Under the pieces are notes generated by a model. It did not search any database and had not been told where the DNA came from. It saw nothing but the letters and a program-made list of their open reading frames with translations. From IMG/VR virus record IMGVR_UViG_3300012347_000286, positions 3,266 through 67,265 of that record: a DNA stretch of 64,000 bases, one strand, 5' to 3'. Origin of the DNA: a virus. The translations under genes were made by a program, and so were the position numbers. Below are positions 14,264-50,431 of this stretch, piece after piece; the first letter of the stretch is position 1; every line of letters starts with the position of its first letter.

Positions 14264-14838
14264 TTACATACGTCCACACTAACATCTATAAGATTAGTGA
14301 GTATGCTAGACATTTGAAGTCATTAGAAAGTGATGACCGTTATTCACGTTTCGGTCACCCTGCTAGTGACTACAATATCGACCAGCTTATCTTACAAATG
14401 TGTTATCACCCCAAAGACCATGAATTATGGTATGCACGTGATGATGAAAAGCGTGTTGGTTGGGGACATATGGCTAAGAATGACGATGGTTCTTGGGAAC
14501 TTGCAGTATCAGTGGATAAAGAGTTTCAGCGTCAAGGCATTGCAGATAAATTACTAACAGAAATGATTGAATGGGCTAAGTTCCATCATATCCCAGAAGT
14601 TTACATGCACTGCATTGAAAACAACAAAGTCATTCAACATCTTGCTACCAAGCATGAATTGAAACTTAAAGAACGAGGCGATGGTGAACGTACTGCGGCA
14701 ATCGAAGTACCAGAACCTAGCTTAGTAGAAGTGAGCAACCAGTTGTTCAAAGAGCAAACGGAGATTGTGCAAGAGATTACTAGACTACGAGGTAAACTCG
14801 CGGGTCTATGGTTGAATCCAAATCACCAAACTGATTGA
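14260..14838 (+). CDS. GNAT-family acetyltransferase-like protein
   Basis: VDKEFQRQGIADKLL matches the Q/RxxGxG/A acetyl-CoA binding motif. Confidence 0.6.
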   Translation: MITYVHTNIYKISEYARHLKSLESDDRYSRFGHPASDYNIDQLILQMCYHPKDHELWYARDDEKRVGWGHMAKNDDGSWELAVSVDKEFQRQGIADKLLTEMIEWAKFHHIPEVYMHCIENNKVIQHLATKHELKLKERGDGERTAAIEVPEPSLVEVSNQLFKEQTEIVQEITRLRGKLAGLWLNPNHQTD

Positions 14839-14882
14839 TTTTTCAATCACAAATAGACATAATACACACACAGGAGAATAAC

Positions 14883-15155
14883 ATGTCAAAATTCGAAACA
14901 CCAAAACTACCACAAGTAAAATTTAACAAAAACGGCTACGAGATTCGTGCCGACGTTCTAGCAATGGCTAAGGAAGTGGTCATGCAAGACTATCAAGTTA
15001 AGATGCATGGTTGGGAAATCACTGCCGGGCGTGACGAACGTACCGGTCAACTTACAACTACAGTAGCAATGCCAGAGTTTCCGGGCATGGACAAGATTCT
15101 AGAAGCCGCTGAAAAGATGTATGGCTTCGTCAATCAAGGATCTACTCAAAAGTAA
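14883..15155 (+). CDS. hypothetical protein (90 aa)
   Basis: CAGGAGAATAACATG RBS; the track ORF starts 16 codons earlier. Confidence 0.55.
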   Translation: MSKFETPKLPQVKFNKNGYEIRADVLAMAKEVVMQDYQVKMHGWEITAGRDERTGQLTTTVAMPEFPGMDKILEAAEKMYGFVNQGSTQK

Positions 15156-15170
15156 TACTTTTAGTTCTCA

Positions 15171-15200
15171 AAAAGGCTCCACTAGTTGGGGCTTTTTTTT
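15171..15200 (+). terminator. putative rho-independent terminator (GGCUCC..GGGGCU hairpin with G-U pairs plus T8)
   Basis: Hairpin followed by TTTTTTTT at 15193-15200. Confidence 0.5.
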
Positions 15201-15209
15201 GCCCAAAAG

Positions 15210-15238
15210 TTGACAATAAATGGGTAAAGTGATATACT
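15210..15238 (+). promoter_or_regulatory. sigma70 promoter (TTGACA-17-TATACT)
   Basis: -35 at 15210-15215 and -10 at 15233-15238. Confidence 0.65.
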
Positions 15239-15267
15239 ATGGGTAAGTTAAAGAAAAGGTGAACAAA

Positions 15268-21284: not shown

Positions 21285-22847
21285 ATGTTAAAAAGAATCT
21301 TTTCACTAAGTAACGGGGCGTTGCTCGTTGCACTATCATTAAGTACTATTGCCGCTTGGTATAGTATCATCGGTCTAACCGCTATCTTCGCAGGTGCGGT
21401 TGTTCCCATTATCATTATGGGTACTGCACTAGAGTTTGCAAAGATTACAACCACAGTTTGGTTACGTAAGTACTGGTATCGCTGTTCATTGATTATGAAG
21501 ATATACCTAGTTCCTGCTGTTGTGTTACTAGCACTATTGACTAGTATGGGTATCTTTGGATTCTTATCTAAAGCACACATGGATCAAGGAATTGGGTCAG
21601 GCGATGTGCAGGCTAAAGTGTCCTTGCTTGACGAAAAGATTGCTACTCAGCGTGAAACTATCAAGTCAAGTAAGTCTATGCTGGCTCAAATGGATCAGCA
21701 AGTTAACGACATTATGACTAAGGGCGATAGTGAAAAGTCAGTTGAGCGTTCGGTTACGATTCGTAAACAACAGGCTAAAGAACGTGCCTCACTGCAAAAA
21801 GATATTGAAGTTGCAAACAAAGAAATCGCAAAACTAAACGAAGAACGAGCACCTATTGCTAGTGAACTACGCAAAGTAGAAGCAGAGGTAGGTCCTATCA
21901 AGTATATCGCTGCCCTTATTTACGGTGACAATGCTGATGCAAATATGCTTGAAGCTGCGGTTCGTTGGGTTATTATCTTACTCGTTGTGGTCTTTGATCC
22001 ACTTGCTATCATGTTAGTATTAGCTGCTAATCAAAGTAAAGAGTGGGACGAAAACAATGACGTAGAAGAAGAAAACAAACTACGTGAACAAGTTGAGCAT
22101 GATAAAGTAGTTGAGACTATTTTAGAAGAAGTTCCGGTAGTAGAAGAATCAGTTGTTCTTGAAGTAACTGACGAAGAGGAAGAAGCATTCAGAGAGTTAG
22201 AGCCCAAGCCTGAACCAGAAAAGAGCATGGCAGAACTTCACCCATATTTGAATCAACCATTCACTCACTTTGAGAATACTACACCAATTGTTCACAAACC
22301 AGAAGTTGAAGAACCAGCGTATGAACAAGATGACGGTCCTTTAACAGAAGAACAGGTTGAACAGATTGTTGAATCAGCAGAGGTTCCTAAAATCTTAGCA
22401 ATGGGAATTGACGATGTTGAACGTCCTGGTGACTACGTGCTTCCCAAAGATGATTACGTGCTACCTGATTTTAAAGTGATTCCTGGTAGTGATTTTATTG
22501 AGTACGAAGGCAAAAAGATGCACAAGAGTGCATTTAAGGACCGTCACCCGGAACTCGCACTTGAGGTAGATAGACCAAGAGAACCTAAGACAGACTTTGG
22601 ATCATCCTTTCCATTAGCTCCTCTTGCTGGTGACACTTTTGTGCGTGTTGACACTATCCCAAATAGTGTATACAAGTTCAATGGCATACGTTGGATAGAG
22701 ACAAACAGAAGTACTACTGACACCTACTTATCTAATGCGGATTACATACAGTTCTTGGTAGAGAAAATTGCTACTGGAGAATATGATCCTGAGCAATTAA
22801 CCGAACAAGAAGAAGAAGCAATTCGTATTCATATTGCAAACTCATAA
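21285..22847 (+). CDS. large membrane protein: N-terminal TM helices, central coiled coil, acidic C-terminal domain
   Basis: Three to four hydrophobic segments, then a KE-rich heptad region, then an E/D-rich tail. Confidence 0.6.
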   Translation: MLKRIFSLSNGALLVALSLSTIAAWYSIIGLTAIFAGAVVPIIIMGTALEFAKITTTVWLRKYWYRCSLIMKIYLVPAVVLLALLTSMGIFGFLSKAHMDQGIGSGDVQAKVSLLDEKIATQRETIKSSKSMLAQMDQQVNDIMTKGDSEKSVERSVTIRKQQAKERASLQKDIEVANKEIAKLNEERAPIASELRKVEAEVGPIKYIAALIYGDNADANMLEAAVRWVIILLVVVFDPLAIMLVLAANQSKEWDENNDVEEENKLREQVEHDKVVETILEEVPVVEESVVLEVTDEEEEAFRELEPKPEPEKSMAELHPYLNQPFTHFENTTPIVHKPEVEEPAYEQDDGPLTEEQVEQIVESAEVPKILAMGIDDVERPGDYVLPKDDYVLPDFKVIPGSDFIEYEGKKMHKSAFKDRHPELALEVDRPREPKTDFGSSFPLAPLAGDTFVRVDTIPNSVYKFNGIRWIETNRSTTDTYLSNADYIQFLVEKIATGEYDPEQLTEQEEEAIRIHIANS

Positions 22848-22860
22848 GATAACAAAAAGG

Positions 22861-22889
22861 TTGACAAATAACCCATTGTCTGCTATACT
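22861..22889 (+). promoter_or_regulatory. sigma70 promoter (TTGACA-17-TATACT)
   Basis: GGTTGACAAATAACCCATTGTCTGCTATACT. Confidence 0.65.
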
Positions 22890-22920: not shown

Positions 22921-23529
22921 ATGAAACGTATTCTTACTGCGGTCGCTGTAACAGCTTTGATTACCGGATGCTCTAGTATCAAGCCCACAGAGACTATCGC
23001 AGAGCAAAAACTATCAACCTCGTTTGTTAGTGAAAAAATCAAAATCGAGACTAAATGCTCTTGGATGGGCATGGGTAATGAGTGCAAAATCGTTGCTATC
23101 GAAGCAACCGGTACTGCACCCAGTTTCGGTTCAACTGTCAACAATCGTAAAATTGCACTAACTCGCGCCGAAATGCGAGCCAAAGCAAACGTTGCAGAGT
23201 TCTTGGATAATCAAATTAGCACAAGTCGAGTTAATACTACTATCGCAAAGAACATTGAACGAGCCACTGACAAGGTTCGTCAAGGCAAGGCTGACAGTGA
23301 GGCAGTCGAAATGACAGACACCGAAGCTAAGAACATTTCCCTTCGTGAGAATCAAAACGATACTGCATCTACTTTGACCGAAACTATCCGAACATCTGCA
23401 CAGGCAGTATTGCGTGGTTTCCGTAAAATTGATGAACGTGTAGTAGGAGACCAAGAAGTTGCAGTAACCATTCGTTGGGACATTGGGGCTAACACCTCTC
23501 GTAAGCAACTTATTCAATTGATGCAATGA
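22921..23529 (+). CDS. lipoprotein (lipobox ITGC)
   Basis: MKRILTAVAVTALITGCSS. Confidence 0.6.
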   Translation: MKRILTAVAVTALITGCSSIKPTETIAEQKLSTSFVSEKIKIETKCSWMGMGNECKIVAIEATGTAPSFGSTVNNRKIALTRAEMRAKANVAEFLDNQISTSRVNTTIAKNIERATDKVRQGKADSEAVEMTDTEAKNISLRENQNDTASTLTETIRTSAQAVLRGFRKIDERVVGDQEVAVTIRWDIGANTSRKQLIQLMQ

Positions 23530-24524
23530 AGCATCTAATCTTATTGCTCACGTTGGCACTAGTGTCAGCGTGTGCATCAAAGCCTGCGAAAACTGCGCAC
23601 AGTTTTGACGACAGTATACCTGTACAAGTAGTCGGTGTAGGTAGTACATTCAGTGAAGCCAAGACTAATGGCTTTAATCGAGCAATTGAATATGTCGTGG
23701 GTACAGTCATTGTAACCGAGAAAGAATCGAAACATGATTCCCTAACTCGAAATGAAATTATCAATCATAGTTCGGGTTATGTAGACACCTACACTATCAT
23801 ACGTGAAGATACTGTAAACGGTCGAGTTAGATTGACAATGGATGTGTATATTAAGCACAGTAAGATTGCCAATCGAATCCTCAATAAGGATAAAGAGCAA
23901 ACAACAGTAAACGGTGACCAACTAGCAACACAGTATTCTACCTACTTAAATTCTCGTACAACGGTTACTCAGGTTATCAACACAGTATTAAATGATTACC
24001 CGTCACGGGCGTTCACTGTTAAAAAGGTGAAGTCAGAATTTTTACTAGATAACGAGAACAATGCTAGGTTGTTGATAACTTACAGGTTAGACTGGAACTA
24101 TAACTATCTAGTTTCGTTGAACGAAGCATTGCAGATGGGTGCAGATGACCGTAATGCAAACATTACACAAAATCGTGTGTTGGTTAACAGCAAGAAGCCT
24201 GAGAACTGGCTCTTAGGTGAGGGTAAGAACTACTATTTCAATGATAACAAGTTATATTCCCTAATCTATGAAAAACTTCACGTAACTACAGTCGTTTATG
24301 CTATAATACTAGATGTGAGAGACAACGCAATTAGTTGCGACCAATCACACCATGACATGGTAGCAGGAGGTAGTTGGCTTTGGGTTCAAGGTCACATATC
24401 TCCCCAATCAACAATCGATATTACGATAGATCCTATCTCTGTGAAAAAGTTGAGTGGTGCGCATAACATCGAACTTGGCGTCAGCGGAGATACTAATTAT
24501 TGTAAAAATCTAAAGCGAAGATAA
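23526..24524 (+). CDS. lipoprotein (lipobox VSAC)
   Basis: MKHLILLLTLALVSACAS. Confidence 0.6.
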   Translation: MKHLILLLTLALVSACASKPAKTAHSFDDSIPVQVVGVGSTFSEAKTNGFNRAIEYVVGTVIVTEKESKHDSLTRNEIINHSSGYVDTYTIIREDTVNGRVRLTMDVYIKHSKIANRILNKDKEQTTVNGDQLATQYSTYLNSRTTVTQVINTVLNDYPSRAFTVKKVKSEFLLDNENNARLLITYRLDWNYNYLVSLNEALQMGADDRNANITQNRVLVNSKKPENWLLGEGKNYYFNDNKLYSLIYEKLHVTTVVYAIILDVRDNAISCDQSHHDMVAGGSWLWVQGHISPQSTIDITIDPISVKKLSGAHNIELGVSGDTNYCKNLKRR

Positions 24525-24532
24525 GTATTATA

Positions 24533-25732
24533 ATGACTGATGAATCAAAACAACTAAACCATTGTAGTTTCTGCGGAGCAAGCAAAGAAGCAGTTAAAAA
24601 ATTAGTAGTAGGTGAAACTGCCGCTATTTGTAGTGACTGTATTGAACTTTGTGAGGACCTAATTGAGGACGAAATCTCGGAAGAACAGGAGACTACAAAT
24701 CCTGACTACGATCCTGAATCTATCAAAGAGTTTCTGGATCAGCATGTCATCGGTCAAAATGATGCTAAAACTGTATTGAGCGTTGCCATTGCAAACCATT
24801 ACAAGCGTATCAATCACCCACCAAAAGACTTAGAGATTCAAAAGGGAAACGTTCTTATCGTAGGGCCCACGGGTAGTGGTAAAACATTGCTTGCTAAGAC
24901 TGCTGCCAAGTTTCTCAAAGTGCCCTTTGTAGTCGCTGATGCAACTAGTTTGACAGAAGCCGGATACGTCGGTGATGATGTAGAATCCATGATATCAATG
25001 TTACTTAACGCGGCTGGGGGAGACAAAGAACTAGCAGAGCGCGGTATTGTATTCGTTGATGAAATTGACAAAATCGCCCGTAAGAGCGAAGGTTCTAGTA
25101 TCACACGTGACGTATCCGGCGAAGGCGTACAGCAAGCACTATTGAAGATGGTTGAAGGCACAACTTGTCGAGTACAAAGCTCCGGTGGACGCAAGCACCC
25201 AGGCGGTGATATGGCTGAAATCAACACAAAGAACATCCTCTTTATTGCAGGCGGTGCTTTTGTTGGATTGAAAGACGTTATCGGTAAAAGAACAAACAAC
25301 TCTGGCATTGGCTTCACTGCCGGTGTCAAGGATGCTAAGGTTGAAGGTGACTTGAGTAAAGTAACACCCGACGACTTGACTAAGTTTGGTATGATTCCTG
25401 AGTTTATCGGTCGTTTCACAACTACAGTAAGCATTAGCGAATTGACCAAAGAACAGTTAATCCACATTCTTACTGATGTTAAGAACAATTATGTTGCTCA
25501 ATATAAGTATTTGCTCAAGTTAGATGGAATCGAGCTAACCTTCACTAGTGATGCATTGGATGAACTAGCAGAACGTTGCTTAAAACTCAAAACAGGTGCT
25601 CGTGGATTGCACACTGAGATTGAACGTGTACTAATGCCCCATATGTATCGTACTAGATACTACCGCCAAAATGAAATTAAGATGCTAAATATAGATAAGG
25701 AGCAGGTTATAAACCCACAAGCTATTCTATGA
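24533..25732 (+). CDS. clpX: ClpX ATP-dependent protease ATPase subunit
   Basis: N-terminal C4 zinc finger (CSFCG...CSDCIELC), Walker A GPTGSGKT, GYVG pore loop, Walker B VDEIDK and IGF ClpP-docking loop. Confidence 0.9.
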   Translation: MTDESKQLNHCSFCGASKEAVKKLVVGETAAICSDCIELCEDLIEDEISEEQETTNPDYDPESIKEFLDQHVIGQNDAKTVLSVAIANHYKRINHPPKDLEIQKGNVLIVGPTGSGKTLLAKTAAKFLKVPFVVADATSLTEAGYVGDDVESMISMLLNAAGGDKELAERGIVFVDEIDKIARKSEGSSITRDVSGEGVQQALLKMVEGTTCRVQSSGGRKHPGGDMAEINTKNILFIAGGAFVGLKDVIGKRTNNSGIGFTAGVKDAKVEGDLSKVTPDDLTKFGMIPEFIGRFTTTVSISELTKEQLIHILTDVKNNYVAQYKYLLKLDGIELTFTSDALDELAERCLKLKTGARGLHTEIERVLMPHMYRTRYYRQNEIKMLNIDKEQVINPQAIL

Positions 25733-25950
25733 GCATAAAAGGCAGACGAGTACAAGTACATGACGGCAACGTTGAAAAAGCGTTGCGCAAATTTAAGAAG
25801 AAAATTCTTGAGCAAGGTCTTATCCAAGAGATACGTGACCGACAAGAATATGTGAAACCAACGACCAGACGCAAAGTTGCTGCGGGACAAGCGGAAAGTC
25901 GTTGGAAGAAACATCTACGTAGCCAACAGCTACCCCCAAAACAATACTAA
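25729..25950 (+). CDS. rpsU: ribosomal protein S21 (bS21) homolog
   Basis: VEKALRKFKKKILEQGLIQEIRDRQEYVKPTTRRK aligns with E. coli S21 ([32 protein letters not shown]). Confidence 0.8.
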   Translation: MSIKGRRVQVHDGNVEKALRKFKKKILEQGLIQEIRDRQEYVKPTTRRKVAAGQAESRWKKHLRSQQLPPKQY

Positions 25951-26056
25951 CCCAATAATATACAAATATTTTACGCAATCATGTAAAATATATAAATACG
26001 TTATAGATGCTTAACTGGTCTATAAGTTACAATCTTGCTTTTTAAAGGAGAAAAAT

Positions 26057-27937
26057 ATGAGCAAAGTCATCGGTATCGACCTCGGTACCACAAATTCATG
26101 CGTAGCCGTTATTGAAAACGGAATCCCCAAAGTTATTGAGAATTCAGAAGGTGCTAGAACAACACCATCTATCGTTGCTTACACAAGTGATGAAATTCTA
26201 GTAGGCGCAAGCGCAAAGCGTCAGGCAGTAACAAACCCAAAGAACACAGTATACGCAAGCAAGCGTTTAATCGGTCGCAAGTTCGCCGAAGAAGCTGTCC
26301 AAAAAGATATTAATTTGATGCCATACAAAATCGTTGCTAATGACAACGGTGATGCATGGGTTCAAGTTAACGAAGATAAGTTAGCACCTCCGCAAATCTC
26401 AGCAGAAGTATTGCGCAAGATGAAGAAGACTGCGGAAGACTATCTAGGTGAAGAAGTCACCCAAGCAGTTATCACAGTTCCAGCATACTTTAACGATAGT
26501 CAACGTCAAGCAACGAAAGATGCTGGTCGTATTGCTGGTCTAGAAGTATTGCGTATTATCAACGAACCAACAGCAGCCGCACTAGCATACGGTGTTGACA
26601 AGCAAGACAAGAAAGACCGTAAAGTCGCAGTCTATGACTTAGGTGGAGGTACGTTTGACGTATCTATCATTGAGTTGGCAGACGTTGATGGTGATAAGCA
26701 GATTGAAGTTCTATCAACAAACGGCGACACTTTCTTGGGCGGTGAAGATTTCGACCAACGCATCATGGATTACTTGGTTGAAGAGTTTAAGAAAGAGTCC
26801 GGCGTTGACTTGACTAAAGACGTTCTTGCATTGCAACGTTTGAAAGAAGCCGCAGAGAAGGCTAAGATTGAATTGTCAAGTTCACAAAGCACAAGTGTTA
26901 ACTTGCCATACGTTACAGCAGACGCATCAGGTCCTAAACACTTGAACGTTACAATCAATCGTGCTAAGTTGGAACAACTAGTTGATGAATTGATTCAACG
27001 TAGTCTTGCCCCATGTAAGCAAGCGATGAAGGATGCAGGCGTTACTGCAAGTGACATTGACGAAGTTATCTTAGTCGGTGGTATGACACGTATGCCAAAG
27101 GTGCAAGAAGTTGTTGAACAATTGTTTGGCAAAGCACCTCGCAAAGATGTTAACCCAGACGAAGCAGTTGCCGCTGGTGCAGCTATTCAAGGTTCTGTTC
27201 TAGCAGGTGACCGTACTGACGTTCTATTGCTTGACGTTACTCCACTATCATTGGGTATCGAAACGATGGGCAATGTGTTCTCAAAAGTTATCAACAAGAA
27301 TACAACTATCCCTACTAAGGCTTCACAGACTTTCAGTACAGCACAGGACAATCAACCTGCTGTTACAATCAAAGTAGGACAGGGTGAGCGTGAACTATTC
27401 CAATATAATAAAGTACTTGGTGAGTTCAACTTAGATGGTATTGCACCAGCACCCCGCGGTATGCCTCAAATCGAAGTTACGTTTGATATTGACGCAAACG
27501 GTATCATGCACATCAGTGCTAAAGACAAGGGTACAGGTAAAGAGAACAAAATCACTATCAAGTCTAACTCAGGTTTGACAGAAGCAGAGATTCAGCAAAT
27601 GGTTAAAGATGCTGAGGACAATGCAGAAGCAGATAAGAAACACGTTGAATTGGTACAAGCACGTAACGGTGCTGAAGGTACGTACAACACGTTTAAGAAA
27701 GACTTTGATTCATACAAGGATCAAGTAACAGAAGAAGAACGTACCAAAGCAGAAGAAGCATTGAACGCTATTCAAGAGGCACTTAAAGGTGAAGATGTAG
27801 AAGCAATTCAAAAAGCTACTACTGATTTGTATCAATCGATTGGTCCAATCACCGCTAAGAAGCACGAAGCAGAAGAGGCTGCAAAGCCAAAAGCTGATGA
27901 CAACATCACTGATGCAGAAGTTAAGGAGGCGGTATGA
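26057..27937 (+). CDS. dnaK: DnaK (Hsp70) chaperone
   Basis: [22 protein letters not shown] and [11 protein letters not shown] are Hsp70 signatures; full-length. Confidence 0.95.
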
Positions 27938-28386
27938 GCAACAGAGGCACTTTAACACTACGTTCAATAGACGTTCCTTCTATTCATAAATTTGGTATTG
28001 GTTTTGATTCAATGATAGATGAATTGATGCGAGTCAGTTCTGCCCAAACAACAAGTAACTATCCTCCTCATAACGTCATTAAGACAGGTGAGAATACTGT
28101 TCTGATTGAAATGGCAGTTGCAGGATTCGCAGAAGGTGAGATTAATATCTCCACTGAGAACAATATCCTTACTATCCATGGTCAGCAGTTCCGCAACGAA
28201 CCCGTTAACTATGAATATTTGCATCGAGGATTGAGTAGCAGAGACTTTACCCAAAACTTCAGATTAGCTGAACATGTTGAGGTAAAAGATGCTACAATCA
28301 AGAACGGCATTCTTACCATCTTACTAGAGCGTGATGTTCCGGAAGAAAAGAAGCCCAGAAGTATTGCTATTAATTTCAATAAATAG
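27934..28386 (+). CDS. small heat-shock protein (Hsp20/alpha-crystallin, IbpA-like)
   Basis: Alpha-crystallin domain pattern (GILTIHGQQ ... [11 protein letters not shown]); coupled to the dnaK stop. Confidence 0.75.
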
Positions 28387-28395
28387 TATAATATG

Positions 28396-28430
28396 AGCAT
28401 AGTGCGGGGATAGTCCCCGCACTCTTAACA
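28396..28430 (+). terminator. perfect hairpin (AGTGCGGGGA / TCCCCGCACT) after the sHSP gene; no T-run
   Basis: 10-bp stem with 4-nt loop. Confidence 0.45.
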
Positions 28431-28441
28431 GGTCTACATAT

Positions 28442-28750
28442 ATGGCACAATCAGATACCCAAGTGACAATCAAACCCAATCTTAAATTAACTGAACCACC
28501 TTTGTATAAGGTTATCTACATGAACGATGACACGACTACAATGGACTTTGTTGTCCGTAGTCTAATTGAACACTTCAACTATACTATGGAGACTTCTGAG
28601 AATATTACAACCAGTATTCACGAAGCCGGCTCTGCGGTTGTTGCAGTACTACCCTATGAAATTGCAGAACAAAAGGGCATTGAAGTAACGTTAGATGCAA
28701 GAAGTGAAGGCTTTCCCTTGCAAGTCAAAATCGAAGTTAGTGAAGGTTAA
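28442..28750 (+). CDS. clpS: ClpS-like adaptor protein
   Basis: YKVIYMNDDTTTMDFVVRSLIEHF parallels the ClpS core (V.LLNDDYTPMEFVV.VL...F). Confidence 0.7.
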   Translation: MAQSDTQVTIKPNLKLTEPPLYKVIYMNDDTTTMDFVVRSLIEHFNYTMETSENITTSIHEAGSAVVAVLPYEIAEQKGIEVTLDARSEGFPLQVKIEVSEG

Positions 28751-29439
28751 ATCGTCACTTCAATTCGTTTAGCATAATAGGGTTCCCTATCATGCTTTGG
28801 ATTATTTAAATAGTTGATACCGTTTATCATGGTATCAACTATTTTTTCATGTGTTCCGAAAACCCAATGTGATATCTTATGCTCAGTGTCAGCGTGAGTG
28901 ACATAATCTAAGGTAATATCAGTTAACGTACCCTTTTCTCCAAAGTACAATTTGTTAGAAGGTACGCAGTTTGATGCAATAATTATCTTCTTCACATCTA
29001 CGTGTAGTTGTAGTCGCTCAATGGTTTTTTCTAAGTAACTCATATCATCAAAGAAATGAGATTTTAAATCAAACTCATCCGCAGTAGACATACTTTCATA
29101 ATTTTTATACCAACCGTTGATTCCCACGATTGCTATCCCGTCAACGACTACTACGTTGTTATGTAAATATACTGCATTCCCGATACGCGAGGTCAAGTGC
29201 CCAATCGAATCGAGGGTGTCTTCTCTTGATTGTAAGTCTTTGTTTTCAAGGGCCCCGTCGATGAAGAATACACCTTGATATAATTTACTCAAGTGATGCA
29301 ATGCTTTAGCGACCGTAAAGATATCATCCGATAGATTACCGGCTACAATGCAGTACAGACTGGTAGGTTTTCCCTCCCAGTCAAATTCAGAATCGCTGAC
29401 TAGGTGTAAGTCGCTAATGATGTCAAATCCAAAAATCAT
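28747..29439 (-). CDS. putative metallophosphoesterase-like protein
   Basis: N-terminal DIISDLHL (D-x-H) and VAGNLSDD motifs; weak. Confidence 0.45.
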   Translation of the reverse strand: MIFGFDIISDLHLVSDSEFDWEGKPTSLYCIVAGNLSDDIFTVAKALHHLSKLYQGVFFIDGALENKDLQSREDTLDSIGHLTSRIGNAVYLHNNVVVVDGIAIVGINGWYKNYESMSTADEFDLKSHFFDDMSYLEKTIERLQLHVDVKKIIIASNCVPSNKLYFGEKGTLTDITLDYVTHADTEHKISHWVFGTHEKIVDTMINGINYLNNPKHDREPYYAKRIEVTI

Positions 29440-29492
29440 AATGTATTTATGAAAAAAGGGACCGAAGTCCCCTTTAAAGTAGCATATTTAGA

Positions 29493-29738
29493 TTATGCTT
29501 TTGGCTTTTTAGCAGCTGGCTTCTTTGCTGGGGCCTTTGCAGCTGGGGCTTTCGCCTTAGCTGGGGCTTTCGCTTTCGGTGCTGCTTTTGGCTTAGCTGG
29601 TGCCTTAGGTGCTGCCTTAGGTGCTGCTTCTGCAACAACGGGGGTAGCATTTACTGCTTCAACTTTAGTAACTTCTGCTACAACGGGTGTTGCAACAGGT
29701 TCGCTACTACCAAAAATCTTCTTTAGAAATGAAAACAT
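29493..29738 (-). CDS. Lys/Ala/Pro-rich histone-H1-like (AKP-repeat) DNA-binding protein (81 aa)
   Basis: AGGAG RBS on the minus strand; PKAAPKAPAKPKAAPKAKAPAKAKAPAAKAPAKKPAAKKPKA tail. Confidence 0.6.
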   Translation of the reverse strand: MFSFLKKIFGSSEPVATPVVAEVTKVEAVNATPVVAEAAPKAAPKAPAKPKAAPKAKAPAKAKAPAAKAPAKKPAAKKPKA

Positions 29739-29802
29739 GTTTTTCTCCTTGAACTACTATTTAGACGCATACTTACGTACATATATTTTTTTAAATAAGA
29801 GT

Positions 29803-30294
29803 ATGGCGCTTACTAATCTTAGTTTGTCGGAACTCATGGATTTGCCTTTACCCAGTGTAACTGTGCAGAAGCGTCTTCCTTTTCGCCCAACAAAGTACTT
29901 CCTACATCATGCGTATGAACTCATAAACTATGAGGTTTTCGGAAATACTATGTACAAAGCTACATTAGAACTACGTCCTAACTGTAGAAAGTACTGGGGA
30001 ATGTGTGAGGGGCATATAAAACCAGTGATGACTGGTAGCTACTGTAACATCATTATGATGGATAAATGGTTCTGCCCACAGTGGTTTATCACTACTCTAG
30101 CACACGAAATGGTGCATCAATATCAATGGGATGTGCTTGGTCCTGAAAGACAAGCTAATGGGAAAGATTGGTTAATGAGTCACGGTCCTAGCTTCTATGC
30201 ATTCAGAGAAGATTTAGAGCCACACAATATCTCATTAAAAACGGCGCATTCTCAGCGCCGTTGGTTTAAACATCAAGATTTGTTTAAGGCTTAA
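29803..30294 (+). CDS. SprT-like / WLM-type zinc metalloprotease domain protein
   Basis: HEMVHQYQW is an HExxH motif. The 5' part of the track ORF is antisense to the AKP gene and is rejected. Confidence 0.55.
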   Translation: MALTNLSLSELMDLPLPSVTVQKRLPFRPTKYFLHHAYELINYEVFGNTMYKATLELRPNCRKYWGMCEGHIKPVMTGSYCNIIMMDKWFCPQWFITTLAHEMVHQYQWDVLGPERQANGKDWLMSHGPSFYAFREDLEPHNISLKTAHSQRRWFKHQDLFKA

Positions 30295-31451
30295 CGTTTA
30301 GCACGTGTAGCACGTTCGCTACCTACTTCAGGTTCTACTTCAGGTTTAGCTTCCTTAGAAACCTTCTGTTTAGCGTTAGGGTTACTTGTAACGTTTCCGT
30401 TAACGTCAACAAGAACAACGTCCTTGTCACCCTTCTTACCGATACCACGAGCTAATGTAACACCCAATGTACGCAATCCTGGAAGAGGATTGCTACGTGT
30501 ACTGTCGTTACGAATCAACCAAACCATCAAGTGACTTTCAGGAATGTCTTCTTTGCTAGTGATAACAGCATGACAGTCAACAGTTACATTGTTGCCTTCT
30601 TGCACGAAATGCTGAGGCTTGAATGTCTGAATGACGACTCCGCCCTTTGGATTCAAGTCGCTACCAAAGATAGCTGATAATCCTTCTTCTGGAGTAGGCT
30701 CAACAACGATTTCTTTGTCTAACTTGTAAACTGGATTAGTCGCACCTGTCTTCTTGTCTACTGTCTCGCTAATCTTGATTAGATTGACTGCACCTTGTTT
30801 GACAAGTTTCTTGATGATTTCTTTAGCCTTCTCACCGAACAAGCTATCAGCACTTTCCCACATGTCAGCATTAACTTTCTTAATACTGATAGGCAACGCA
30901 CCCTTTTGACTACGCAACACAACGTCAGCTTTTTTGCGGTTTGCAGTGTCACGTCCTGCAACGTCAACGTTTGTGCAGTTTTTGATAGCCATTTTCTTAC
31001 CACGAGGGTCTTTGAATGTAACGTTGACTGAGCCGTACTTGTCAACAACTGATTGAAGAATACTAGCCATTTCCAATTCGTTAGCAACGCCAGCAGACTT
31101 CTCACCCTGACCACCTGAATCTTTGATGACAATAGAAACAGGACTGTTTTGGAAGATGATGCCGCCCAAACTGCTTAGTTTAGGGTTATCACTGTAAGTT
31201 GGTTGATACTCTTTAAGTGTCTTTTGAAGACCTGCAAGAATCTCGCCCAAAATCTGATTACGGAACTCATCTTTGCGTTGACCTTCGGGAATCTGAACTA
31301 AGACTTCAATCTTGTTGCTTGCCTTATCCTTGATTTCCTCGTAGCCGATTTTAGCTAGTGCTGCGACAACTGTTGGTTTGGTCAAAGTCGTAGCGATTGG
31401 GCTAGCTGCTTCAACCAAAGTAGTTGCAAATTCATAGTGTCTCATGTACAA
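30291..31451 (-). CDS. hypothetical protein (386 aa) with Lys-rich C-terminal tail
   Basis: Track ORF convergent with the SprT-like gene; no family recognised. Confidence 0.6.
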   Translation of the reverse strand: MYMRHYEFATTLVEAASPIATTLTKPTVVAALAKIGYEEIKDKASNKIEVLVQIPEGQRKDEFRNQILGEILAGLQKTLKEYQPTYSDNPKLSSLGGIIFQNSPVSIVIKDSGGQGEKSAGVANELEMASILQSVVDKYGSVNVTFKDPRGKKMAIKNCTNVDVAGRDTANRKKADVVLRSQKGALPISIKKVNADMWESADSLFGEKAKEIIKKLVKQGAVNLIKISETVDKKTGATNPVYKLDKEIVVEPTPEEGLSAIFGSDLNPKGGVVIQTFKPQHFVQEGNNVTVDCHAVITSKEDIPESHLMVWLIRNDSTRSNPLPGLRTLGVTLARGIGKKGDKDVVLVDVNGNVTSNPNAKQKVSKEAKPEVEPEVGSERATRAKR

Positions 31452-31533
31452 TCTCTCATGTAGTTAGTGAAGTGATAATTATATCACCGATTTAGTATTT
31501 ATCGCAAATTATTTTTAACAAAGGCAAAAAAAA

Positions 31534-32127
31534 ATGAGTTTAGTTCCAATCGTAGTAGAATCTACTTCCAAAGGTGAGCGCAGTTACGACATTTACAGTC
31601 GGTTGATGCGTGACCGTGTTATCTTGCTTGAGGGCGAAGTTCACGACCAAATGGCAAACTTGATTGTTGCCCAACTACTTTTCTTGGAATCAGAAGATGC
31701 GACTAAAGACATTAGCATGTACATTAACTCTCCGGGTGGTTCGGTTACTGCTGGTATGGCCATCTATGATACTATGCAATTTATTGCCCCCGACGTTCAA
31801 ACAATCGTCATGGGTCAGGCTTGTTCTATGGGTAGTCTTCTCGCTCAGGGAGGGGCAGCTGGAAAAAGATTCATGCTCCCAAACGCACGACACATGATTC
31901 ATCAGCCCTCTGGTGGCGCACGTGGTATGCAAAGTGACATTGAGATTTCTTACAAAGAGATTACATATTTGAAAACTCGTTTGACTGAAATCTACGTTGA
32001 ACACAATAGCAAGGGCAAGACCTACGCAGAGTTTGAGAAGGATATGGATCGTGACACATTCATGTCAGCACAACAAGCGTTAGACTATGGTCTGATTGAC
32101 AAGATTGTGACAAAACGAAACGGTTGA
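31534..32127 (+). CDS. clpP: ClpP protease proteolytic subunit
   Basis: [10 protein letters not shown] (Ser), MIHQP (His) and RDTFMSA (Asp) form the catalytic triad. Confidence 0.9.
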
Positions 32128-32152
32128 CAATAAATGTGTTCGGTGATATACT
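32124..32152 (+). promoter_or_regulatory. sigma70 promoter (TTGACA-17-TATACT); the clpP stop codon TGA lies inside the -35
   Basis: CGGTTGACAATAAATGTGTTCGGTGATATACT. Confidence 0.7.
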
Positions 32153-32176: not shown

Positions 32177-34132
32177 TTGAAAATGAGCCACATATCACCG
32201 AACGTAATCAAGTTCCCCGTAACATCCAAGTCAATTGATTTGGCATTCATGCGTCCATTGCAAAAGAAATATTTGCATGACAATGTGTTTCAGTCCCTAG
32301 ACGAGTCTGAGAAACTGAATGACCATAGAATCACTATTGTGCCCGCAGGCACTGGTTCAGGTAAGTCTACTATCGTTACCAAAATCACGATTGCCTCAAT
32401 CATTAGTCGTGATCCAAATGCCAAGTGCATTATCTTTACTTCACCCGATAGCGGTTGTGTTGACGGACCTTTCTCGTCATTTGTTCGAGAGTGGAATGGA
32501 AAGAAGATTACCTGTGCTGACGGTTCAGTTAAAGAGATCCGTGCTAGACAAAAAGACGAAATCGTTAAGTCTTGGGCAGTTGGTGAAAAAACCTCCAATG
32601 ATGTAGTTGACGTTTGGTTTGTTACTACTCAATGGTTGGGCCTTAAGTGGAAAGAATATCGTAATCCCAATATCTTGCAAAAGAACATTGGCATTCCTGA
32701 CTATATCATCGTTGATGAAATTCACTTTGGAATGGGCACAATCAATGCTACTACGATTTTCGAGGACCAAGGGCGCAATAATAAAAACTTTGACCCTAAG
32801 TGGCTACCTACTATTTACGGTATGGCTGTCGCCGGATCACGAGTTATAGGTTATACCGGTACTGCTACCAAGAGTCAACGTGGTGGCACGGTGTTAGGTG
32901 CATCCGTGTTTAAGACTTTGGATCGCATGCCTGAAAGCAAGAATACTAGCGTCTTTGCTGAAACATTACCTATCGAGCCACTGGTAAATTCAGCATACAT
33001 TGTCCAAGATGTTAGTAACACTTACGAATTAGCAAAACTTCAATACGAACTAACAGTATCAAAGACTTTGCAATTCTTCAAGGACATCGACCAAGACACA
33101 TGGGTAAAAGCTGAAGCCATTGGTATTTCAAAATTGATGCCAGGTTCATTCTTTAAGTTCGGTCGCTGTGACGCTACTACATCAATTCCGTTAGAGCATG
33201 ATCCGATGAGTCGTGTCCGCAAAGGTCAAAAGAAAGACTTCTTGGACTATTCATCTGACATTGGCGCTGACTCCGGTATTGTGACAAGTGACCAAAAATC
33301 GTTTCACCCAAATAAAGGTGGTGTTAACTACCACTATACTGCCAACGACATTATCAATCGTGCGAATAGTTCAAGTGTGGCACAAAACCCACTTACACTT
33401 GGGGTAATCATGCAAGGTAACATGGGTTGGGATATCCCGCGATTGAAGCAAGTATCTTTCTTGGGTCACCCGAGTGCAAAAAATGTTCACTTGATGCAAC
33501 TACAAACAATGGCACGAGCAAAACGTTTAGTGCATGGTGTATATGAACATAATACAAAAGCAGTTGAGATTGCAGAACTCGATGTATCGATGCAACAAAA
33601 AGAATTGTTGGCAAGGTACGTAGTGTTCTCGAATACCGTGAATATTGTTGTTCCCAAGTATGCACATCTGCTGAAGTCTGCATACAGTGAGTTTAAACAA
33701 CACATGCACACTCCTGCAGAGGGTTTAGATTTGTATTTGAACATTATTAAAACTCATGTTCCTACAAAATCTAATGTTTCTAAAATGACAAAGCCTCACT
33801 TTCACATGGGGTATAATCCCGGTTCACAAAATCAAGCAAGCAAGAAAGATTATTGCCAGCACTGCACTGATTTAGGTTTAGTCACTGACAAAGGTGATAC
33901 TTTGTGTTCTATTATTGGACGTGTCCAGGCTAATGATATTGCCGAGCGTAGACTGTCTGATGAGGAGTTCAAAGAGTATTGGAAGGGACAGTTGAAGTTG
34001 GACCACTTGAACGGTGTTCGTACTGACAATCGTCCTGAAAATCAGTACACTCGCTGTGGCATCAGTGATGCGTTGAAAACCTTGATTAAGAAAGACTACT
34101 TGAACACCTACAAAAAGGTTGACGGTAAATAG
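32177..34132 (+). CDS. superfamily-2 DEAH-box helicase
   Basis: Walker A PAGTGSGKST, DEIH box (IIVDEIHFG) and further helicase motifs. Confidence 0.75.
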   Translation: MKMSHISPNVIKFPVTSKSIDLAFMRPLQKKYLHDNVFQSLDESEKLNDHRITIVPAGTGSGKSTIVTKITIASIISRDPNAKCIIFTSPDSGCVDGPFSSFVREWNGKKITCADGSVKEIRARQKDEIVKSWAVGEKTSNDVVDVWFVTTQWLGLKWKEYRNPNILQKNIGIPDYIIVDEIHFGMGTINATTIFEDQGRNNKNFDPKWLPTIYGMAVAGSRVIGYTGTATKSQRGGTVLGASVFKTLDRMPESKNTSVFAETLPIEPLVNSAYIVQDVSNTYELAKLQYELTVSKTLQFFKDIDQDTWVKAEAIGISKLMPGSFFKFGRCDATTSIPLEHDPMSRVRKGQKKDFLDYSSDIGADSGIVTSDQKSFHPNKGGVNYHYTANDIINRANSSSVAQNPLTLGVIMQGNMGWDIPRLKQVSFLGHPSAKNVHLMQLQTMARAKRLVHGVYEHNTKAVEIAELDVSMQQKELLARYVVFSNTVNIVVPKYAHLLKSAYSEFKQHMHTPAEGLDLYLNIIKTHVPTKSNVSKMTKPHFHMGYNPGSQNQASKKDYCQHCTDLGLVTDKGDTLCSIIGRVQANDIAERRLSDEEFKEYWKGQLKLDHLNGVRTDNRPENQYTRCGISDALKTLIKKDYLNTYKKVDGK

Positions 34133-42824: not shown

Positions 42825-43370
42825 TTAGAACCAGAGCCAAATGCCTTGGCTTAGTAAAATGATACCAATGACTGCGACTACTTCACTGACCTTGTACATT
42901 GTGTTATTAACAGCAATGATAGATGCAGACAATAGAACAATCGCTAATTGGAATGCCATTGAAGCAAATGTTAGCCATGGTGAATGTCTAGCTGCTTGGT
43001 CACGTGCTGCTTCAAATGCTTGTGCTTTTGCTAGTAACTCTTTCTTGCCTTCGCCTGACTTTGGGTCACTTTCGTAACGCTCAATCTTAGCTTCTAGCTT
43101 TTCTACGCGGGCTTTGTCGCCTTTAGCTTTAGCATCTTCTAGTTGCCCTTCAGCAATTGAGCCTTTGATACTCTTTGCTTGGAAGAAAGCGTATGTGTCA
43201 GTTGCCTTCAACATATTCTTCATTACTGCACCTGAGTGCTGGTTAGCAAAGTATGTAGTTACTGCCATGAACAATGCCATGATAACGATTACTAATCCTG
43301 CTTTGTCTTTGATTTGTGCTTCACGTTCTGAACGTGTGAGTGGTTTTGGTTGTTGTGCTGCTTCAGCCAT
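42825..43370 (-). CDS. membrane protein with central coiled coil (181 aa)
   Basis: A TM helix near residue 30, a KAE-rich coiled coil, and C-terminal TM helices. Confidence 0.55.
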   Translation of the reverse strand: MAEAAQQPKPLTRSEREAQIKDKAGLVIVIMALFMAVTTYFANQHSGAVMKNMLKATDTYAFFQAKSIKGSIAEGQLEDAKAKGDKARVEKLEAKIERYESDPKSGEGKKELLAKAQAFEAARDQAARHSPWLTFASMAFQLAIVLLSASIIAVNNTMYKVSEVVAVIGIILLSQGIWLWF

Positions 43371-46541: not shown

Positions 46542-47093
46542 ATGTACGATATTGTAGAGAAAATAGAAGAATCCCGTAAAAAGAAAATAGAGATAGAACC
46601 TCTATCTTATTCCAACACCGATTTAAGCCCAGTTCTAAGTAAAGCCACTATGGATTATCACTATGGTGATTTAGCCCACGGCTATGTGAAACGCTACAAT
46701 AGCGGTGAGGGTGACAGTGACTTTAATTATGCAGGCGCCTTTTTGCATAATATCTACTTTCAACAATTTCAAAAGCCACAAGAAAGTGGTACACCCAACG
46801 GTCCTGTACTCAATCTAATCAAACGCAAGTATGGTTGGTGGAGAGATTTCAAAGAAGTATTCAAAACTGAAGCAATGAAGATCCAGGGCTCAGGCTGGAT
46901 TTATCTATCGTTCAGTGGTGACATAAAGACCATAGAAAATCACGAGGTACGTGATGACATTCTTATCTTAGTTGACTGGTGGGAGCATGCCTGGGCTCTC
47001 GACTACCAAGCTGATAAGAAAGCCTATTTAGAGAATATCTGGAAGATTATGAATTGGAGCCATATCAACACCCGTTGGGGAAAGAATCTCTGA
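46542..47093 (+). CDS. Fe/Mn superoxide dismutase-like protein
   Basis: DWWEHAWALDYQ matches the SOD D-x-W-E-H-A-Y-Y motif, and the N-terminus has His-containing helices. Confidence 0.65.
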   Translation: MYDIVEKIEESRKKKIEIEPLSYSNTDLSPVLSKATMDYHYGDLAHGYVKRYNSGEGDSDFNYAGAFLHNIYFQQFQKPQESGTPNGPVLNLIKRKYGWWRDFKEVFKTEAMKIQGSGWIYLSFSGDIKTIENHEVRDDILILVDWWEHAWALDYQADKKAYLENIWKIMNWSHINTRWGKNL

Positions 47094-50100: not shown

Positions 50101-50431
50101 TTCTGCAACTATCGCTCTAGATGACACCATGAAAATGGACAGTCAAGGTATAATTCAGAGAACTAATGGCAACATTACAATCATGCCGAACATTCAGACA
50201 GCCGATGACAATATTATAATGTCTCCTGCTACTGTTAGTGCAAAATTTGTAGCCACAATAGGAACTACCTTTTCTGCACTAAGTAATCAAGGAACACCTG
50301 CTGCAGGTCAACGTGCATTTATCACTGATGGTGACTTAGCCGCAGCCGGTAACTTTGGCGCAGTTGTAGGCGGAGGAGGCTCGAATGGAGTGCCCGTTTA
50401 CTATGATGGAAGTACTTGGCGCATTGGATAA
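47120..50431 (+). CDS. large repeat-rich tail fiber-like protein (1103 aa)
   Basis: G/T/S/N/V-rich beta-repeat composition and an internal ~64-aa (~190-nt) duplication. Confidence 0.65.
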   Translation: MAIPGQANINIGAENQVAGSDNLYEAFHTIQNNFTTLFNASSTLTTFRAGEGIQVSANASNGVVDINNTGVTKITAGTGVTISSANGNVTISTAAQGQTGVTRVGLTSSTLNVGGVSGSNVVSSGTFTVDLPRVPTSSSFATGSYIAPNVTVDEFGRVTAIANGVGVGTVTSVGINPGKGIAVTGGPIVDSGAIDVINTGVTSLQAGTGIRLSGSNGDITVSALQVTSGTVTQIGLTSNTLSVTDGTVTSSGTINVELPVNLSSNNLILSGNANVSGNVNTYKLVSTFSNVQTDLTIGGGPSPGSLTFKTQNNSGNYVSLIPPVNTAVAGLVFMLPNTLGSNSQVLGTDGAGTMNWRIPPAAGTNTQIQFNDPASNGAPQLAGHANLTFNKNTGLLTSQQLSVTANANVGNLSTSGTVTASRFISNVATGTTPFTVTSTTMVTNLYSQYANSIVANAQPNITSVGRLSSLTVGNATANVVLGNSTITTSDITASNAFVLTNTASLLFNTQTSNTKFTALQPPDTILAGAGLYANGTPGGNAFMFWNLPNTWGNVNQFLTTDGSGTMQWSNVPASSPGFDGANIIAISNTTVSTTTTTGALTVGGGVGVEGNVNVGGNLALATGGINVGGGNLTVTQTGMLGARNLTLSSGANISGDVNFLAFSDVRFAGNIAGNVSFRGDYFNFGSNAVISGGGYITSKDITVNGRVEATGNITSSSYVDGQYVKASTALYVYGQSQLGNVGNVYITGGTSGQVLSTDGTGNLSWISASSGGGSSFDASQQLTITNTNTSTSYITGAVRVAGGMGVIGNINAGGNVTSTITASNITGNVSYSSYSGAFTNTTGEWMQSGLYYDGTNIIINERFWKDPIGFAQVKSAISNGVQFGVDPGGYSILPVTPSGDWVEQTMYGAGIWTITVGTISGVPSGTLAVISISNITLNDGGLVSAKLVSGQVLKTALNGQLITNKISSHNADVTISTFDVMFNAYRKIYLGGFGSATIALDDTMKMDSQGIIQRTNGNITIMPNIQTADDNIIMSPATVSAKFVATIGTTFSALSNQGTPAAGQRAFITDGDLAAAGNFGAVVGGGGSNGVPVYYDGSTWRIG

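Follow-up and report, generated by a model that had tools for sequence, protein, structure and literature searches.

What does a virus gain from carrying the genes of a Clp protease, two chaperones and a ribosomal protein side by side? This question is raised by a DNA stretch of 64,000 nucleotides (nt) from the IMG/VR virus record IMGVR_UViG_3300012347_000286 (positions 3,266 to 67,265 of that record). The stretch was analyzed over its whole length and is called the window here, with positions counted from its first letter. Between positions 24533 and 32127 it encodes ClpX, the ribosomal protein bS21, DnaK, Hsp20, ClpS and ClpP, and two lipoprotein genes directly precede clpX. An initial annotation, made from the sequence alone, had read these genes as a remarkable combined set for protein degradation, folding and ribosome modification. 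In our reading, which is drawn from sequence comparison, they belong to a host-takeover block which is conserved in a clade of large, uncultivated freshwater phages with Burkholderiales as probable hosts. We consider this fairly probable. The genes concerned are listed below (aa: amino acids).

22921-23529 (+), lipoprotein A, 202 aa, lipobox ITGC
23526-24524 (+), lipoprotein B, 332 aa, lipobox VSAC
24533-25732 (+), ClpX AAA+ unfoldase, zf-C4_ClpX 3.2e-13 (PF06689), AAA_2 1.2e-31, D2-small
25729-25950 (+), ribosomal protein bS21 homolog, 73 aa, PF01165 2.6e-13, 49.9 bits, PHROG match
26057-27937 (+), DnaK (Hsp70), 626 aa, PF00012 3.7e-258, 858 bits
27934-28386 (+), Hsp20 (alpha-crystallin family), PF00011 9.4e-17, 61.4 bits
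28442-28750 (+), ClpS adaptor, 102 aa, PF02617 5.5e-24, 84 bits, PDB ClpS chains 4e-13
31534-32127 (+), ClpP serine peptidase of the housekeeping type, 197 aa, PF00574 1.4e-79, 266.6 bits

The genes named in the initial annotation are intact at these coordinates, with open reading frames (ORFs), Pfam matches and all checked motifs present. The Pfam scores of ClpX, bS21, DnaK, Hsp20, ClpS and ClpP are well above the curated cut-offs.

Conservation of the gene block in related phages

For the comparison, 147 related loci were fetched from IMG/VR and all window proteins were compared against each of them. The analysis covers the 64-kb window and 10-kb flanks of the relatives, whose genomes are about 350 kb in size. 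IMG/VR contains 529 stretches which encode a relative of the window ClpX. The best 80 of these 529 are 72-93% identical and are located on contigs of up to 359,563 bp. A scan of IMG/VR with ClpS had a similar outcome, and 1360 protein clusters are related to the window S21. A near-identity DNA search of the block against the 50,697 phage records of INPHARED gave no match, and an exact-sequence look-up of ClpX returned no record. The best ClpX matches in INPHARED, found in Bacillus phage G, Atu_ph07, Phosso and Lak phages, are about 50% identical. Since there is no DNA match and the best ClpX proteins are this distant, the clade has no close relative in INPHARED.

The order that recurs in the 147 loci starts with a DUF4407-like membrane protein, followed by lipoprotein A, lipoprotein B, ClpX, S21, an optional DnaK, Hsp20 and ClpS. 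It continues with a 230-aa gene on the minus strand, an optional SprT-like gene, an optional 386-aa gene on the minus strand and finally ClpP. More than 100 related IMG/VR viral contigs have this order in common, and it is identical on an independently annotated NCBI metagenome contig (GCA_013572995.1). With this order recurring in more than 100 related loci, chance does not account for the grouping of the genes. Almost all of the 147 loci contain ClpX, Hsp20, ClpS, the 230-aa gene and ClpP. S21 is missing from a few of them, and DnaK is present in 57 (about 40%). The full-length DnaK which had been counted as part of the set is therefore intact in the window but not a fixed part of the complement. 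Median pairwise ratios of nonsynonymous to synonymous substitution rates (dN/dS) among clade orthologs are about 0.09-0.12 for ClpX (about 0.10), S21, DnaK, ClpS and ClpP, values which are rough because synonymous sites are saturated. The genes of the block are intact, canonical and under purifying selection.

All genes of the block have cellular homologs, which is what bacterial DNA mis-assembled or mis-binned into a viral contig would also show. We consider such an artefact next to impossible, however, as the gene order is unlike any bacterial arrangement and the block is flanked by phage genes on more than 100 independent contigs, which come from many samples. Furthermore, the proteins are distant from their homologs: ClpX shares about 50% identity with its best matches in the phage collection, host-derived records among them, and the values are about 35% for ClpS against its E. 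coli counterpart and 36-46% for S21 against the bacterial homologs compared.

Transcription of the block

Promoter-like sites were scored by their consensus matches out of 12, and sites with a score of at least 10 of 12 were counted across unique clade loci. The following signals are located in the block.

22861-22889 (+), sigma-70-type promoter-like site before lipoprotein A: TTGACA, 17 nt, TATACT, TG; 11 of 12
28364-28392 (+), sigma-70-type promoter-like site before clpS: TTGCTA, 17 nt, TATAAT
28808-28844 (+), terminator-like hairpin shortly downstream of clpS and within the convergent gene at its 3' end: 16-bp stem and T run
31424-31452, promoter-like site before clpP: score 9 of 12 in the window

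Of 67 unique loci, 79% contain a site with at least 10 of 12 matches within 130 nt upstream of lipoprotein A. Upstream of clpS and clpP the shares are 84% of 91 and 63% of 76 unique loci, compared to 6% of random windows. The other genes are rarely preceded by such a site (lipoprotein B 0%, S21 1%, hsp20 4%, clpX 11%, dnaK 12%). The block is predicted to be transcribed as more than one transcript. A promoter is conserved ahead of lipoprotein A but ahead of neither lipoprotein B nor clpX, so that both lipoprotein genes probably share a transcript with clpX, as had been proposed before. Their reading frames overlap by 4 nt. The lipobox is kept in 70/70 orthologs of lipoprotein A and in 43/51 orthologs of lipoprotein B; the former has no Pfam match and the latter no significant match in Pfam or PHROG. 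The host-type promoters suggest an early expression of the block.

The Clp components

The window ClpX carries the four zinc-finger cysteines, Walker A, Walker B, GYVG, RKH, IGF and GARGL motifs, and solved ClpX chains align with it end to end (2.9e-120). This full motif set is kept in 89-94 of 94 clade sequences. The cysteines C11, C14, C33 and C36 and the GYVG pore loop are present in all 94, the Walker A/B, RKH and GARGL residues in 92-94, and the IGF loop (I259-G260-F261 in the window) is found as (I or M)-G-F in 94/94. The zinc finger, pore loop and IGF loop announced for this ClpX are thus all present and conserved in the clade. For ClpP, the PF00574 match in the window protein covers positions 2-181 of 182. 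Solved housekeeping ClpP chains align over its whole length (4e-75), and its start corresponds to the mature N-terminus. The Ser-His-Asp triad that had been described as intact consists of Ser98, His123 and Asp174, each of which is present in 79/79 clade ClpP sequences. A ClpX with an intact IGF loop and an active-site-competent ClpP, both conserved, can reasonably be read as a phage-encoded ClpXP, as was also claimed initially. It would form the core of the block.

Phage ClpP proteins have also been connected with the virion. PHROGs places the ClpP of the window in 'head maturation protease' families, Chen et al. found a 'prohead protease' pVOG beside bS21 in 310 phage genomes, and Iyer et al. 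suggested that phage ClpA and ClpX may help virion assembly. In an explanation of this kind, ClpP would be a prohead protease, and ClpX, Hsp20 and DnaK would act as chaperones of capsid and tail assembly. However, the ClpP studied here is a stand-alone protein of 197 aa which aligns with housekeeping ClpP over its full length and has no scaffold fusion. No head genes were found among the window neighbours tested, nor any structural genes among those tested in the 64-kb window. ClpX retains the IGF loop for docking a true ClpP, and the promoter-like sites are of the host sigma-70 type. A role of the block in virion assembly seems improbable to us.

ClpS is known as an adaptor of ClpA or ClpC and not of ClpX. 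In bacteria, clpP-clpX and clpS-clpA belong to separate operons, and ClpS is not known to pair with ClpX. In the ClpS alignment (A1), the E. coli residues N34, D35, D36, T38, H66, E79, E82 and K84 are invariant. We take N34, D35, D36, T38, M40 and H66 to be residues of the N-degron pocket, and E79, E82 and K84 are presumably contacts to the ClpA N-domain. Within the clade, N28, D29, T32 and H60 are present in 97/97 ClpS sequences and M34 in 91/97, and D30 varies between D, N and E. E76 is found in 97/97 and K78 in 92/97, with R in the remaining five. The presence of a ClpS adaptor gene, as annotated, is thus supported both by its Pfam score and by residues conserved across the clade.

No ClpA was found in the 64-kb window. 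Two scans of IMG/VR, one seeded with E. coli ClpA and the other with a viral ClpA from a sample which also contains a clade contig, revealed 211 ClpA-like stretches each. The best 80 loci were retained per scan and none of them lies on a contig bearing the module, in scans which need exact 8-residue words and are therefore insensitive. With ClpS, ClpX and ClpP together in nearly every relative and no clade ClpA in these insensitive scans, one might think of a self-contained phage N-degron pathway in which ClpS is re-wired to deliver substrates to the phage ClpX. ClpS keeps the ClpA contacts E79, E82 and K84 of E. coli, though. The zinc-binding domain of ClpX is an ordinary one, an N-domain of the ClpA type is missing, and clpS has its own conserved promoter. 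As ClpS works with ClpA or ClpC and a phage ClpA was found neither in the window nor on a module-bearing contig among the loci retained, the pathway is unsupported and very improbable. The N-degron system of ClpXP and ClpS is thus not supported in the form proposed in the initial annotation. A hijack of host ClpA by the phage ClpS is the most economical reading and the more likely one; ClpAP would be retargeted to N-degron substrates or its other activities would be blocked. Likewise, a phage ClpS was predicted to feed host ClpAP (PMC7824862).

A further explanation is possible, although we regard it as unlikely. ClpXP and ClpS could serve counter-defence or resource mining, destroying specific host proteins such as defence proteins and regulators, or bulk protein for amino acids in nutrient-poor lake hosts, with folding support being secondary. 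The Clp components are indeed the invariant core of the block, and loss of DnaK and S21 is possible. The promoters appear to be of host type and early, and a counter-defence role of phage chaperones was proposed for the moraphages (PMC12619734). Other genes of host physiology are also encoded in the window, namely a superoxide dismutase, an SPFH protein, NAMPT and NMNAT. However, a phage adaptor for ClpX was not recognized, and this explanation overlaps with that of a host-takeover block to such an extent that the sequence cannot separate the two.

Ribosomal protein bS21

The bS21 gene described between clpX and dnaK is borne out by the ORFs and the Pfam match. The protein retains the S21 core ALRxFK...KPT..RK and is matched by ribosomal S21 chains at about 1e-6. 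Its N-terminal part is diverged and its C-terminus reads LRSQQLPPKQY. This RSQQLPPKQY tail was compared with those of Neisseria (LRSQQLPPKMY), Burkholderia (IRSQMLPKKLY) and E. coli (ARENARRTRLY). The stop codon of clpX and the start codon of S21 overlap in 78/78 unique junctions, in 64 of them by ATGA as in the window. Because the overlap is found at all junctions, a coupled translation of clpX and S21 looks like a trait of the whole clade. Genes for bS21 are widespread in viruses, and a bS21 from a pelagiphage incorporates into E. coli 70S ribosomes (Mizuno et al., 2019; PMC6375957). An exchangeable bS21, in line with the ribosome modification suggested in the initial annotation, would be a reasonable reading.

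The chaperone genes and their conserved leader

In DnaK of the window, the PF00012 match covers positions 1-596 of 599 and thus both the nucleotide- and the substrate-binding domain. The signature motifs examined show no change in 33-34 of 34 sequences. A J-domain scan of the window ORFs gave two HPD occurrences, neither of them J-like. The annotation of the related NCBI contig lists no co-chaperone, and no search aimed at GrpE was made. Hsp20 is present as annotated, with its alpha-crystallin domain and a C-terminal IxI motif which is kept in 97/97 sequences. Upstream of these two genes, a conserved leader was identified.

25951-26059 (+), chaperone-gene leader: AT-rich box, hairpin 1 (about 26001-26025) and anti-Shine-Dalgarno hairpin, ending on the dnaK ATG

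The anti-Shine-Dalgarno hairpin (hairpin 2) has the sequence CTTGCTTTTTAAAGGAG and is located at 26034-26050. The spacer after S21 is about 105 nt long, and this length is kept whether hsp20 or dnaK follows. The alignment of the leaders (A4) shows the AT-rich box, the hairpin and an invariant CTTGCTT which stands 3-9 variable bases before an invariant AAGGAG. Both hairpins were predicted independently by RNAalifold. Hairpin 1 has compensatory changes in 6/8 pairs and 99.4% of its cells are paired. None of 500 shuffles reaches its percentage paired, its number of compensatory pairs or cells, or its covariation score, and pairing falls to 40-66% if the 3' partners are shifted. In hairpin 2, CUUGCUU pairs with AAGGAG around a bulged G in 41/41 sequences. 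A covariance model built from A4 finds a single copy in the window (25952-26059, 93 bits), and the leader pattern is unique there, with 0.03 chance matches expected. The model also finds the leader in 79/80 ClpX-anchored loci, about half of which were in the training alignment.

The leader ends on the start codon of a chaperone gene in all loci checked, which is hsp20 if dnaK is absent and dnaK otherwise. It is located directly 3' of clpX in loci without S21. In one relative (L072), dnaK is relocated upstream and has its own leader copy (3713-3817). Many loci with DnaK have a second, weaker copy before hsp20, e.g., L023 (13373-13472), L014 (10983-11089) and L006 (13374-13480). The window has lost this second copy, and the hsp20 start overlaps the dnaK stop (ATGA) instead.

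Folding predictions were made for different temperatures and agree on an occlusion of the Shine-Dalgarno sequence. The free energy of the isolated hairpin 2 is predicted to change sign between 20 and 30 °C. The predicted probability that AAGGAG is unpaired in the window leader increases from 0.36 (4 °C) to 0.80 (37 °C), but the median for the Shine-Dalgarno sequence of 41 leaders only from 0.07 to 0.23. The leader resembles a short RNA thermometer of the ROSE (repression of the expression of heat shock genes) type, and we infer from the models that it may sense temperature. In Pseudomonas, ibpA is under the control of ROSE-like thermometers with two hairpins (Krajewski et al., 2013; PMC3669281). 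That leader is about 60 nt long and consists of a stable hairpin I and a U(U/C)GCU stretch pairing imperfectly with the Shine-Dalgarno sequence. Both the Pseudomonas element and the phage leader have a first hairpin that covaries, a Shine-Dalgarno sequence paired in the second hairpin (for the phage, by prediction), a free AUG and a small heat-shock gene next to them. In contrast to the ibpA element, the phage leader is viral, is also found before dnaK, has no upper G-C clamp, and its temperature response is a predicted one. In the literature searched, no phage leader of the ROSE type was found.

Membership in the freshwater-2 motif (RF02980) was considered for positions 25990-26059 (+) and rejected. 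The match has 19.6 bits compared to a gathering threshold of 49.9 and rests mainly on the U-rich and AAAGGAGAAAA Shine-Dalgarno region. This orphan metagenomic motif may itself be derived from related phage leaders.

The AT-rich box (25951-26000, +) reads TTTTACGCAAT ... TAAAATAnATA and lies roughly 10 nt upstream of hairpin 1. Its window version includes TATAAATA, a T4-type late promoter motif; that the box acts as a late promoter of this type would be a guess. A degenerate pattern of the box has no second copy within the window. Another hairpin, rich in G+C, is located in the clpS leader (28402-28422, +; GUGCGGG-GAUAGUC-CCCGCAC), shortly after the promoter-like site. Its loop GAUAGUC resembles the GAUAGUC/GAUGGUC centre of hairpin 1 in many relatives, and the covariance model of the chaperone leader gives 16.5 bits for it (E 1.4).

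Host and origin of DnaK

For DnaK, the closest bacterial proteins in 185,579 species genomes belong almost all to Burkholderiales, with 70-76% identity, compared to 66.5% for E. coli. The nearest genera are Limnohabitans, Rhodoferax, Polynucleobacter and Paraburkholderia. A neighbour-joining tree, which is crude and carries no support values, places the phage DnaKs as a single group within Burkholderiales, and this fits a single acquisition. DnaK therefore looks like a single later acquisition from Burkholderiales-like bacteria. Because DnaK is nearest to Burkholderiales and the bS21 tail is of the Neisseria/Burkholderia type, a betaproteobacterial host of the order Burkholderiales is likely.

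Comparison with known phage systems

The initial annotation had regarded the combination of genes as remarkable. The block as such is real, but the set is not unprecedented, as Atu_ph07, the moraphages and a published S21/Hsp20/Clp neighbourhood precede it. In the Agrobacterium phage Atu_ph07, ClpX, ClpA, ClpB, ClpP, ClpS, DnaJ and Hsp20 are scattered (gp2, gp155, gp292, gp492, gp676, gp708) and ClpS is accompanied by a phage ClpA. Here, in contrast, the genes form a compact block in which S21 overlaps clpX, and no ClpA was recognized. Host-like Clp and chaperone genes are common to Atu_ph07, Bacillus phage G, the Lak phages and the window, at a protein identity of about 50%. DnaK and ClpX are carried by Lak and other huge phages. 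In cultured jumbo phages, Clp and Hsp20 genes were read as aids for proteolysis and the handling of aggregates during infection.

Chen et al. (2022; PMC9723584) analyzed 900 phage genomes and counted Hsp20 (n = 127) and two 'ATP-dependent Clp protease' pVOGs (n = 50 and 47) within ten genes of bS21. This neighbourhood was counted and not dissected. Their bS21 proteins share purifying selection, a diverged N-terminus and a host-like C-terminal anchor with those of our clade. In their clades, however, bS21 is located among late structural genes and the predicted hosts are Bacteroidetes, whereas here it overlaps clpX behind a sigma-70-type promoter and has a betaproteobacterial tail. Moraphages are large freshwater metagenomic phages with DnaK, DnaJ, Hsp20 and a ClpA-like VOG (Perez-Hernandez et al., 2025; PMC12619734). 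Their DnaK comes from the predicted host lineage. It clusters with Flavobacteriales, compared to Burkholderiales here, and Bacteroidota are the predicted hosts. A ClpX, ClpS or S21 module is not mentioned for them. With the E. coli ClpXP and ClpS-ClpAP systems, the block has the canonical residues in common, but here clpS is a neighbour of clpX and clpP, and a clpA is not seen.

The finding is not categorically new, and for each of the components there are precedents in phages. Judged by the searchable literature, what is new is the compact architecture that the clade conserves. The same applies to the coupling of clpX and S21, to clpS together with clpX and clpP with no clpA in view, and to a ROSE-like leader dedicated to phage hsp20 and dnaK.

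Proposed role during infection

The reading of a host-takeover block can be put together as follows. The host RNA polymerase would transcribe the block, probably early in infection. Phage ClpX would dock via its IGF loops on phage or host ClpP, resulting in a ClpXP under phage control. ClpS may bind N-degron substrates and the N-domain of host ClpA, and would redirect or block host ClpAP without feeding ClpX. Phage bS21, with its host-like C-terminal anchor and diverged N-terminus, would be made together with ClpX and could exchange into the host 30S subunit. Hsp20 would keep the phage protein load soluble, supported in one sub-lineage by DnaK acting with host DnaJ and GrpE. Translation of the chaperones would be throttled by the ROSE-type anti-Shine-Dalgarno hairpin, which may open with temperature or stress.

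Several points weigh against this reading. The region-wide number of promoter-like sites (39) is not above that of shuffled sequences (31 ± 5.2), and the promoter and terminator calls are consensus matches only. Saturation of synonymous sites makes the dN/dS values rough. The host assignment is one by gene similarity alone, and the DnaK tree carries no support values. In the leader, hairpin 2 never varies, so that covariation supports it neither way. The exact ROSE-like closing pair is found in only about half of the minimum-free-energy folds. A search of positions 25700-28600 gave no Rfam ROSE match at E up to 10, and nine related loci had no Rfam hit at gathering level. Because of the missing ROSE match, the leader is said to work like a ROSE element and is not filed as a member of it. 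Finally, a phage ClpA, DnaJ or GrpE may possibly be encoded elsewhere in the genomes of about 350 kb.

Other genes of the block and the window

Between clpS and clpP, the following genes are located.

28747-29439 (-), protein with a predicted metallophosphoesterase fold, 230 aa, in 140/147 loci
29493-29738 (-), Ala/Lys/Pro-rich small protein, 81 aa, amphipathic N-terminus and A/K/P-rich tail
29803-30294 (+), SprT-like zinc metalloprotease, 163 aa, HEMVH and a downstream His
30291-31451 (-), 386-aa protein, PHROG 12709 (uncharacterised), in about a quarter of the relatives

The 230-aa and the 386-aa gene had not been named in the initial annotation. The 230-aa protein has no Pfam match. Its AlphaFold2 model has a pLDDT (predicted local distance difference test) of 86.5, with the calcineurin-like metallophosphoesterases PptH, Dbr1, Mre11 and GpdQ as best structural matches at a template modelling (TM) score of about 0.6. 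The first metal motif is D-x-N in most relatives and D-x-H in the window, and relatives are labelled 'predicted phosphohydrolase' by the Joint Genome Institute. Directly upstream of this gene, related loci contain an ORF of 77-139 aa, in which A, K and P together account for more than 50% in 43/92 unique loci. Its relatives have a transmembrane helix or an amphipathic MxxFLKKLFG N-terminus, often APYKVE, and a basic tail. The Ala/Lys/Pro-rich ORF, which is also called as a gene on the NCBI contig, can thus be accepted as a real gene with a position conserved across the clade.

The SprT-like gene is present, but the 281-aa ORF assigned to it from position 29449 is wrong. The true gene encodes 163 aa, the length (approximately) of almost all homologs, and the long N-terminal extension of the 281-aa ORF is antisense to the Ala/Lys/Pro-rich gene. 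H101, E102, H105 and H127 are invariant. The window protein has a Pfam score of 20.6 bits, below the cut-off of 25.6, and many homologs match PF10263. A profile of the family matches human SPRTN (6mdw) at 7e-4, and the model (pLDDT 90.5) has SPRTN (6mdx) as its best structural match, with a TM score of 0.54. A PDB sequence search with the single SprT-like protein and the 386-aa protein returned only noise. The SprT-like assignment holds at the family level, as judged from the profile and the model. None of the 230-aa, SprT-like and 386-aa proteins is demonstrably part of protein quality control.

At the left edge of the block, a 520-aa protein with membrane and coiled-coil parts and weak DUF4407 similarity (1.6e-4) is encoded at 21285-22847 (+). 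It stands directly upstream of the lipoprotein genes in most relatives. At the right edge, clpP is followed by a putative ResIII-like helicase of 651 aa (32177-34132, +) with a promoter-like site at 32124-32152 (11 of 12). The helicase is found at this position in 3/147 loci, which makes the right edge of the module variable.

That the window is phage-like, as had been assumed, agrees with its genes for a DNA ligase, QueD/QueE-like proteins, NAMPT and a 5'-3' exonuclease and with relatives that are IMG/VR viral contigs. It encodes an ATP-dependent DNA ligase, the 5'-3' exonuclease and a dCMP deaminase, and outside the block it resembles the region of a large phage for auxiliary functions and nucleotide metabolism. 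The QueD-like (1481-1981, +; PHROG 2e-36) and QueE-like genes (2145-2999, +; 2e-53) suggest a 7-deazaguanine modification of the phage DNA. A Fe/Mn superoxide dismutase (46542-47093, +; Sod_Fe_C 6.3e-21, Sod_Fe_N 2.4e-06) is located about 14 kb from the module. An SPFH/Band 7 protein is encoded at 57204-58094 (-; 3e-29) and a DUF4337 protein at 42825-43370 (-; 8e-30). On the NCBI contig (L394), a Band_7 gene (14456-15256) lies a few genes from clpX. NAMPT (59320-60720, -) and a bifunctional NMNAT/NUDIX protein (62324-63343, -) form an NAD+ salvage pair as in large phages. For a 1103-aa ORF (47120-50431, +), neither Pfam nor PHROG gives a match. With ARAGORN, no tRNA or tmRNA was detected in the window.

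Meaning for the biology of large phages

Phage chaperones, Clp components and ribosomal proteins are mostly reported as scattered auxiliary genes. Here they are found as one selected block, in a clade which is very common in freshwater metagenomes. A more far-reaching possibility is a self-sufficient phage programme of protein turnover and translation, in which ClpS would serve the phage ClpXP without ClpA, ClpX and bS21 would be coupled, and a viral RNA thermometer, tuned to lake temperatures, would switch the chaperone genes. We hold this to be quite improbable. If true, the programme would be without a bacterial counterpart, and the coupled synthesis of ClpX with bS21 would tie proteolysis to remodelled ribosomes. 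The conserved overlap of clpX and S21 offers a handle on the purpose of the viral bS21. Large phages may bring their own ATP-dependent protease instead of using that of the host, and a phage ClpS may retarget or silence host ClpAP. In addition, such phages may put their chaperones under a stress or temperature switch at the RNA level.

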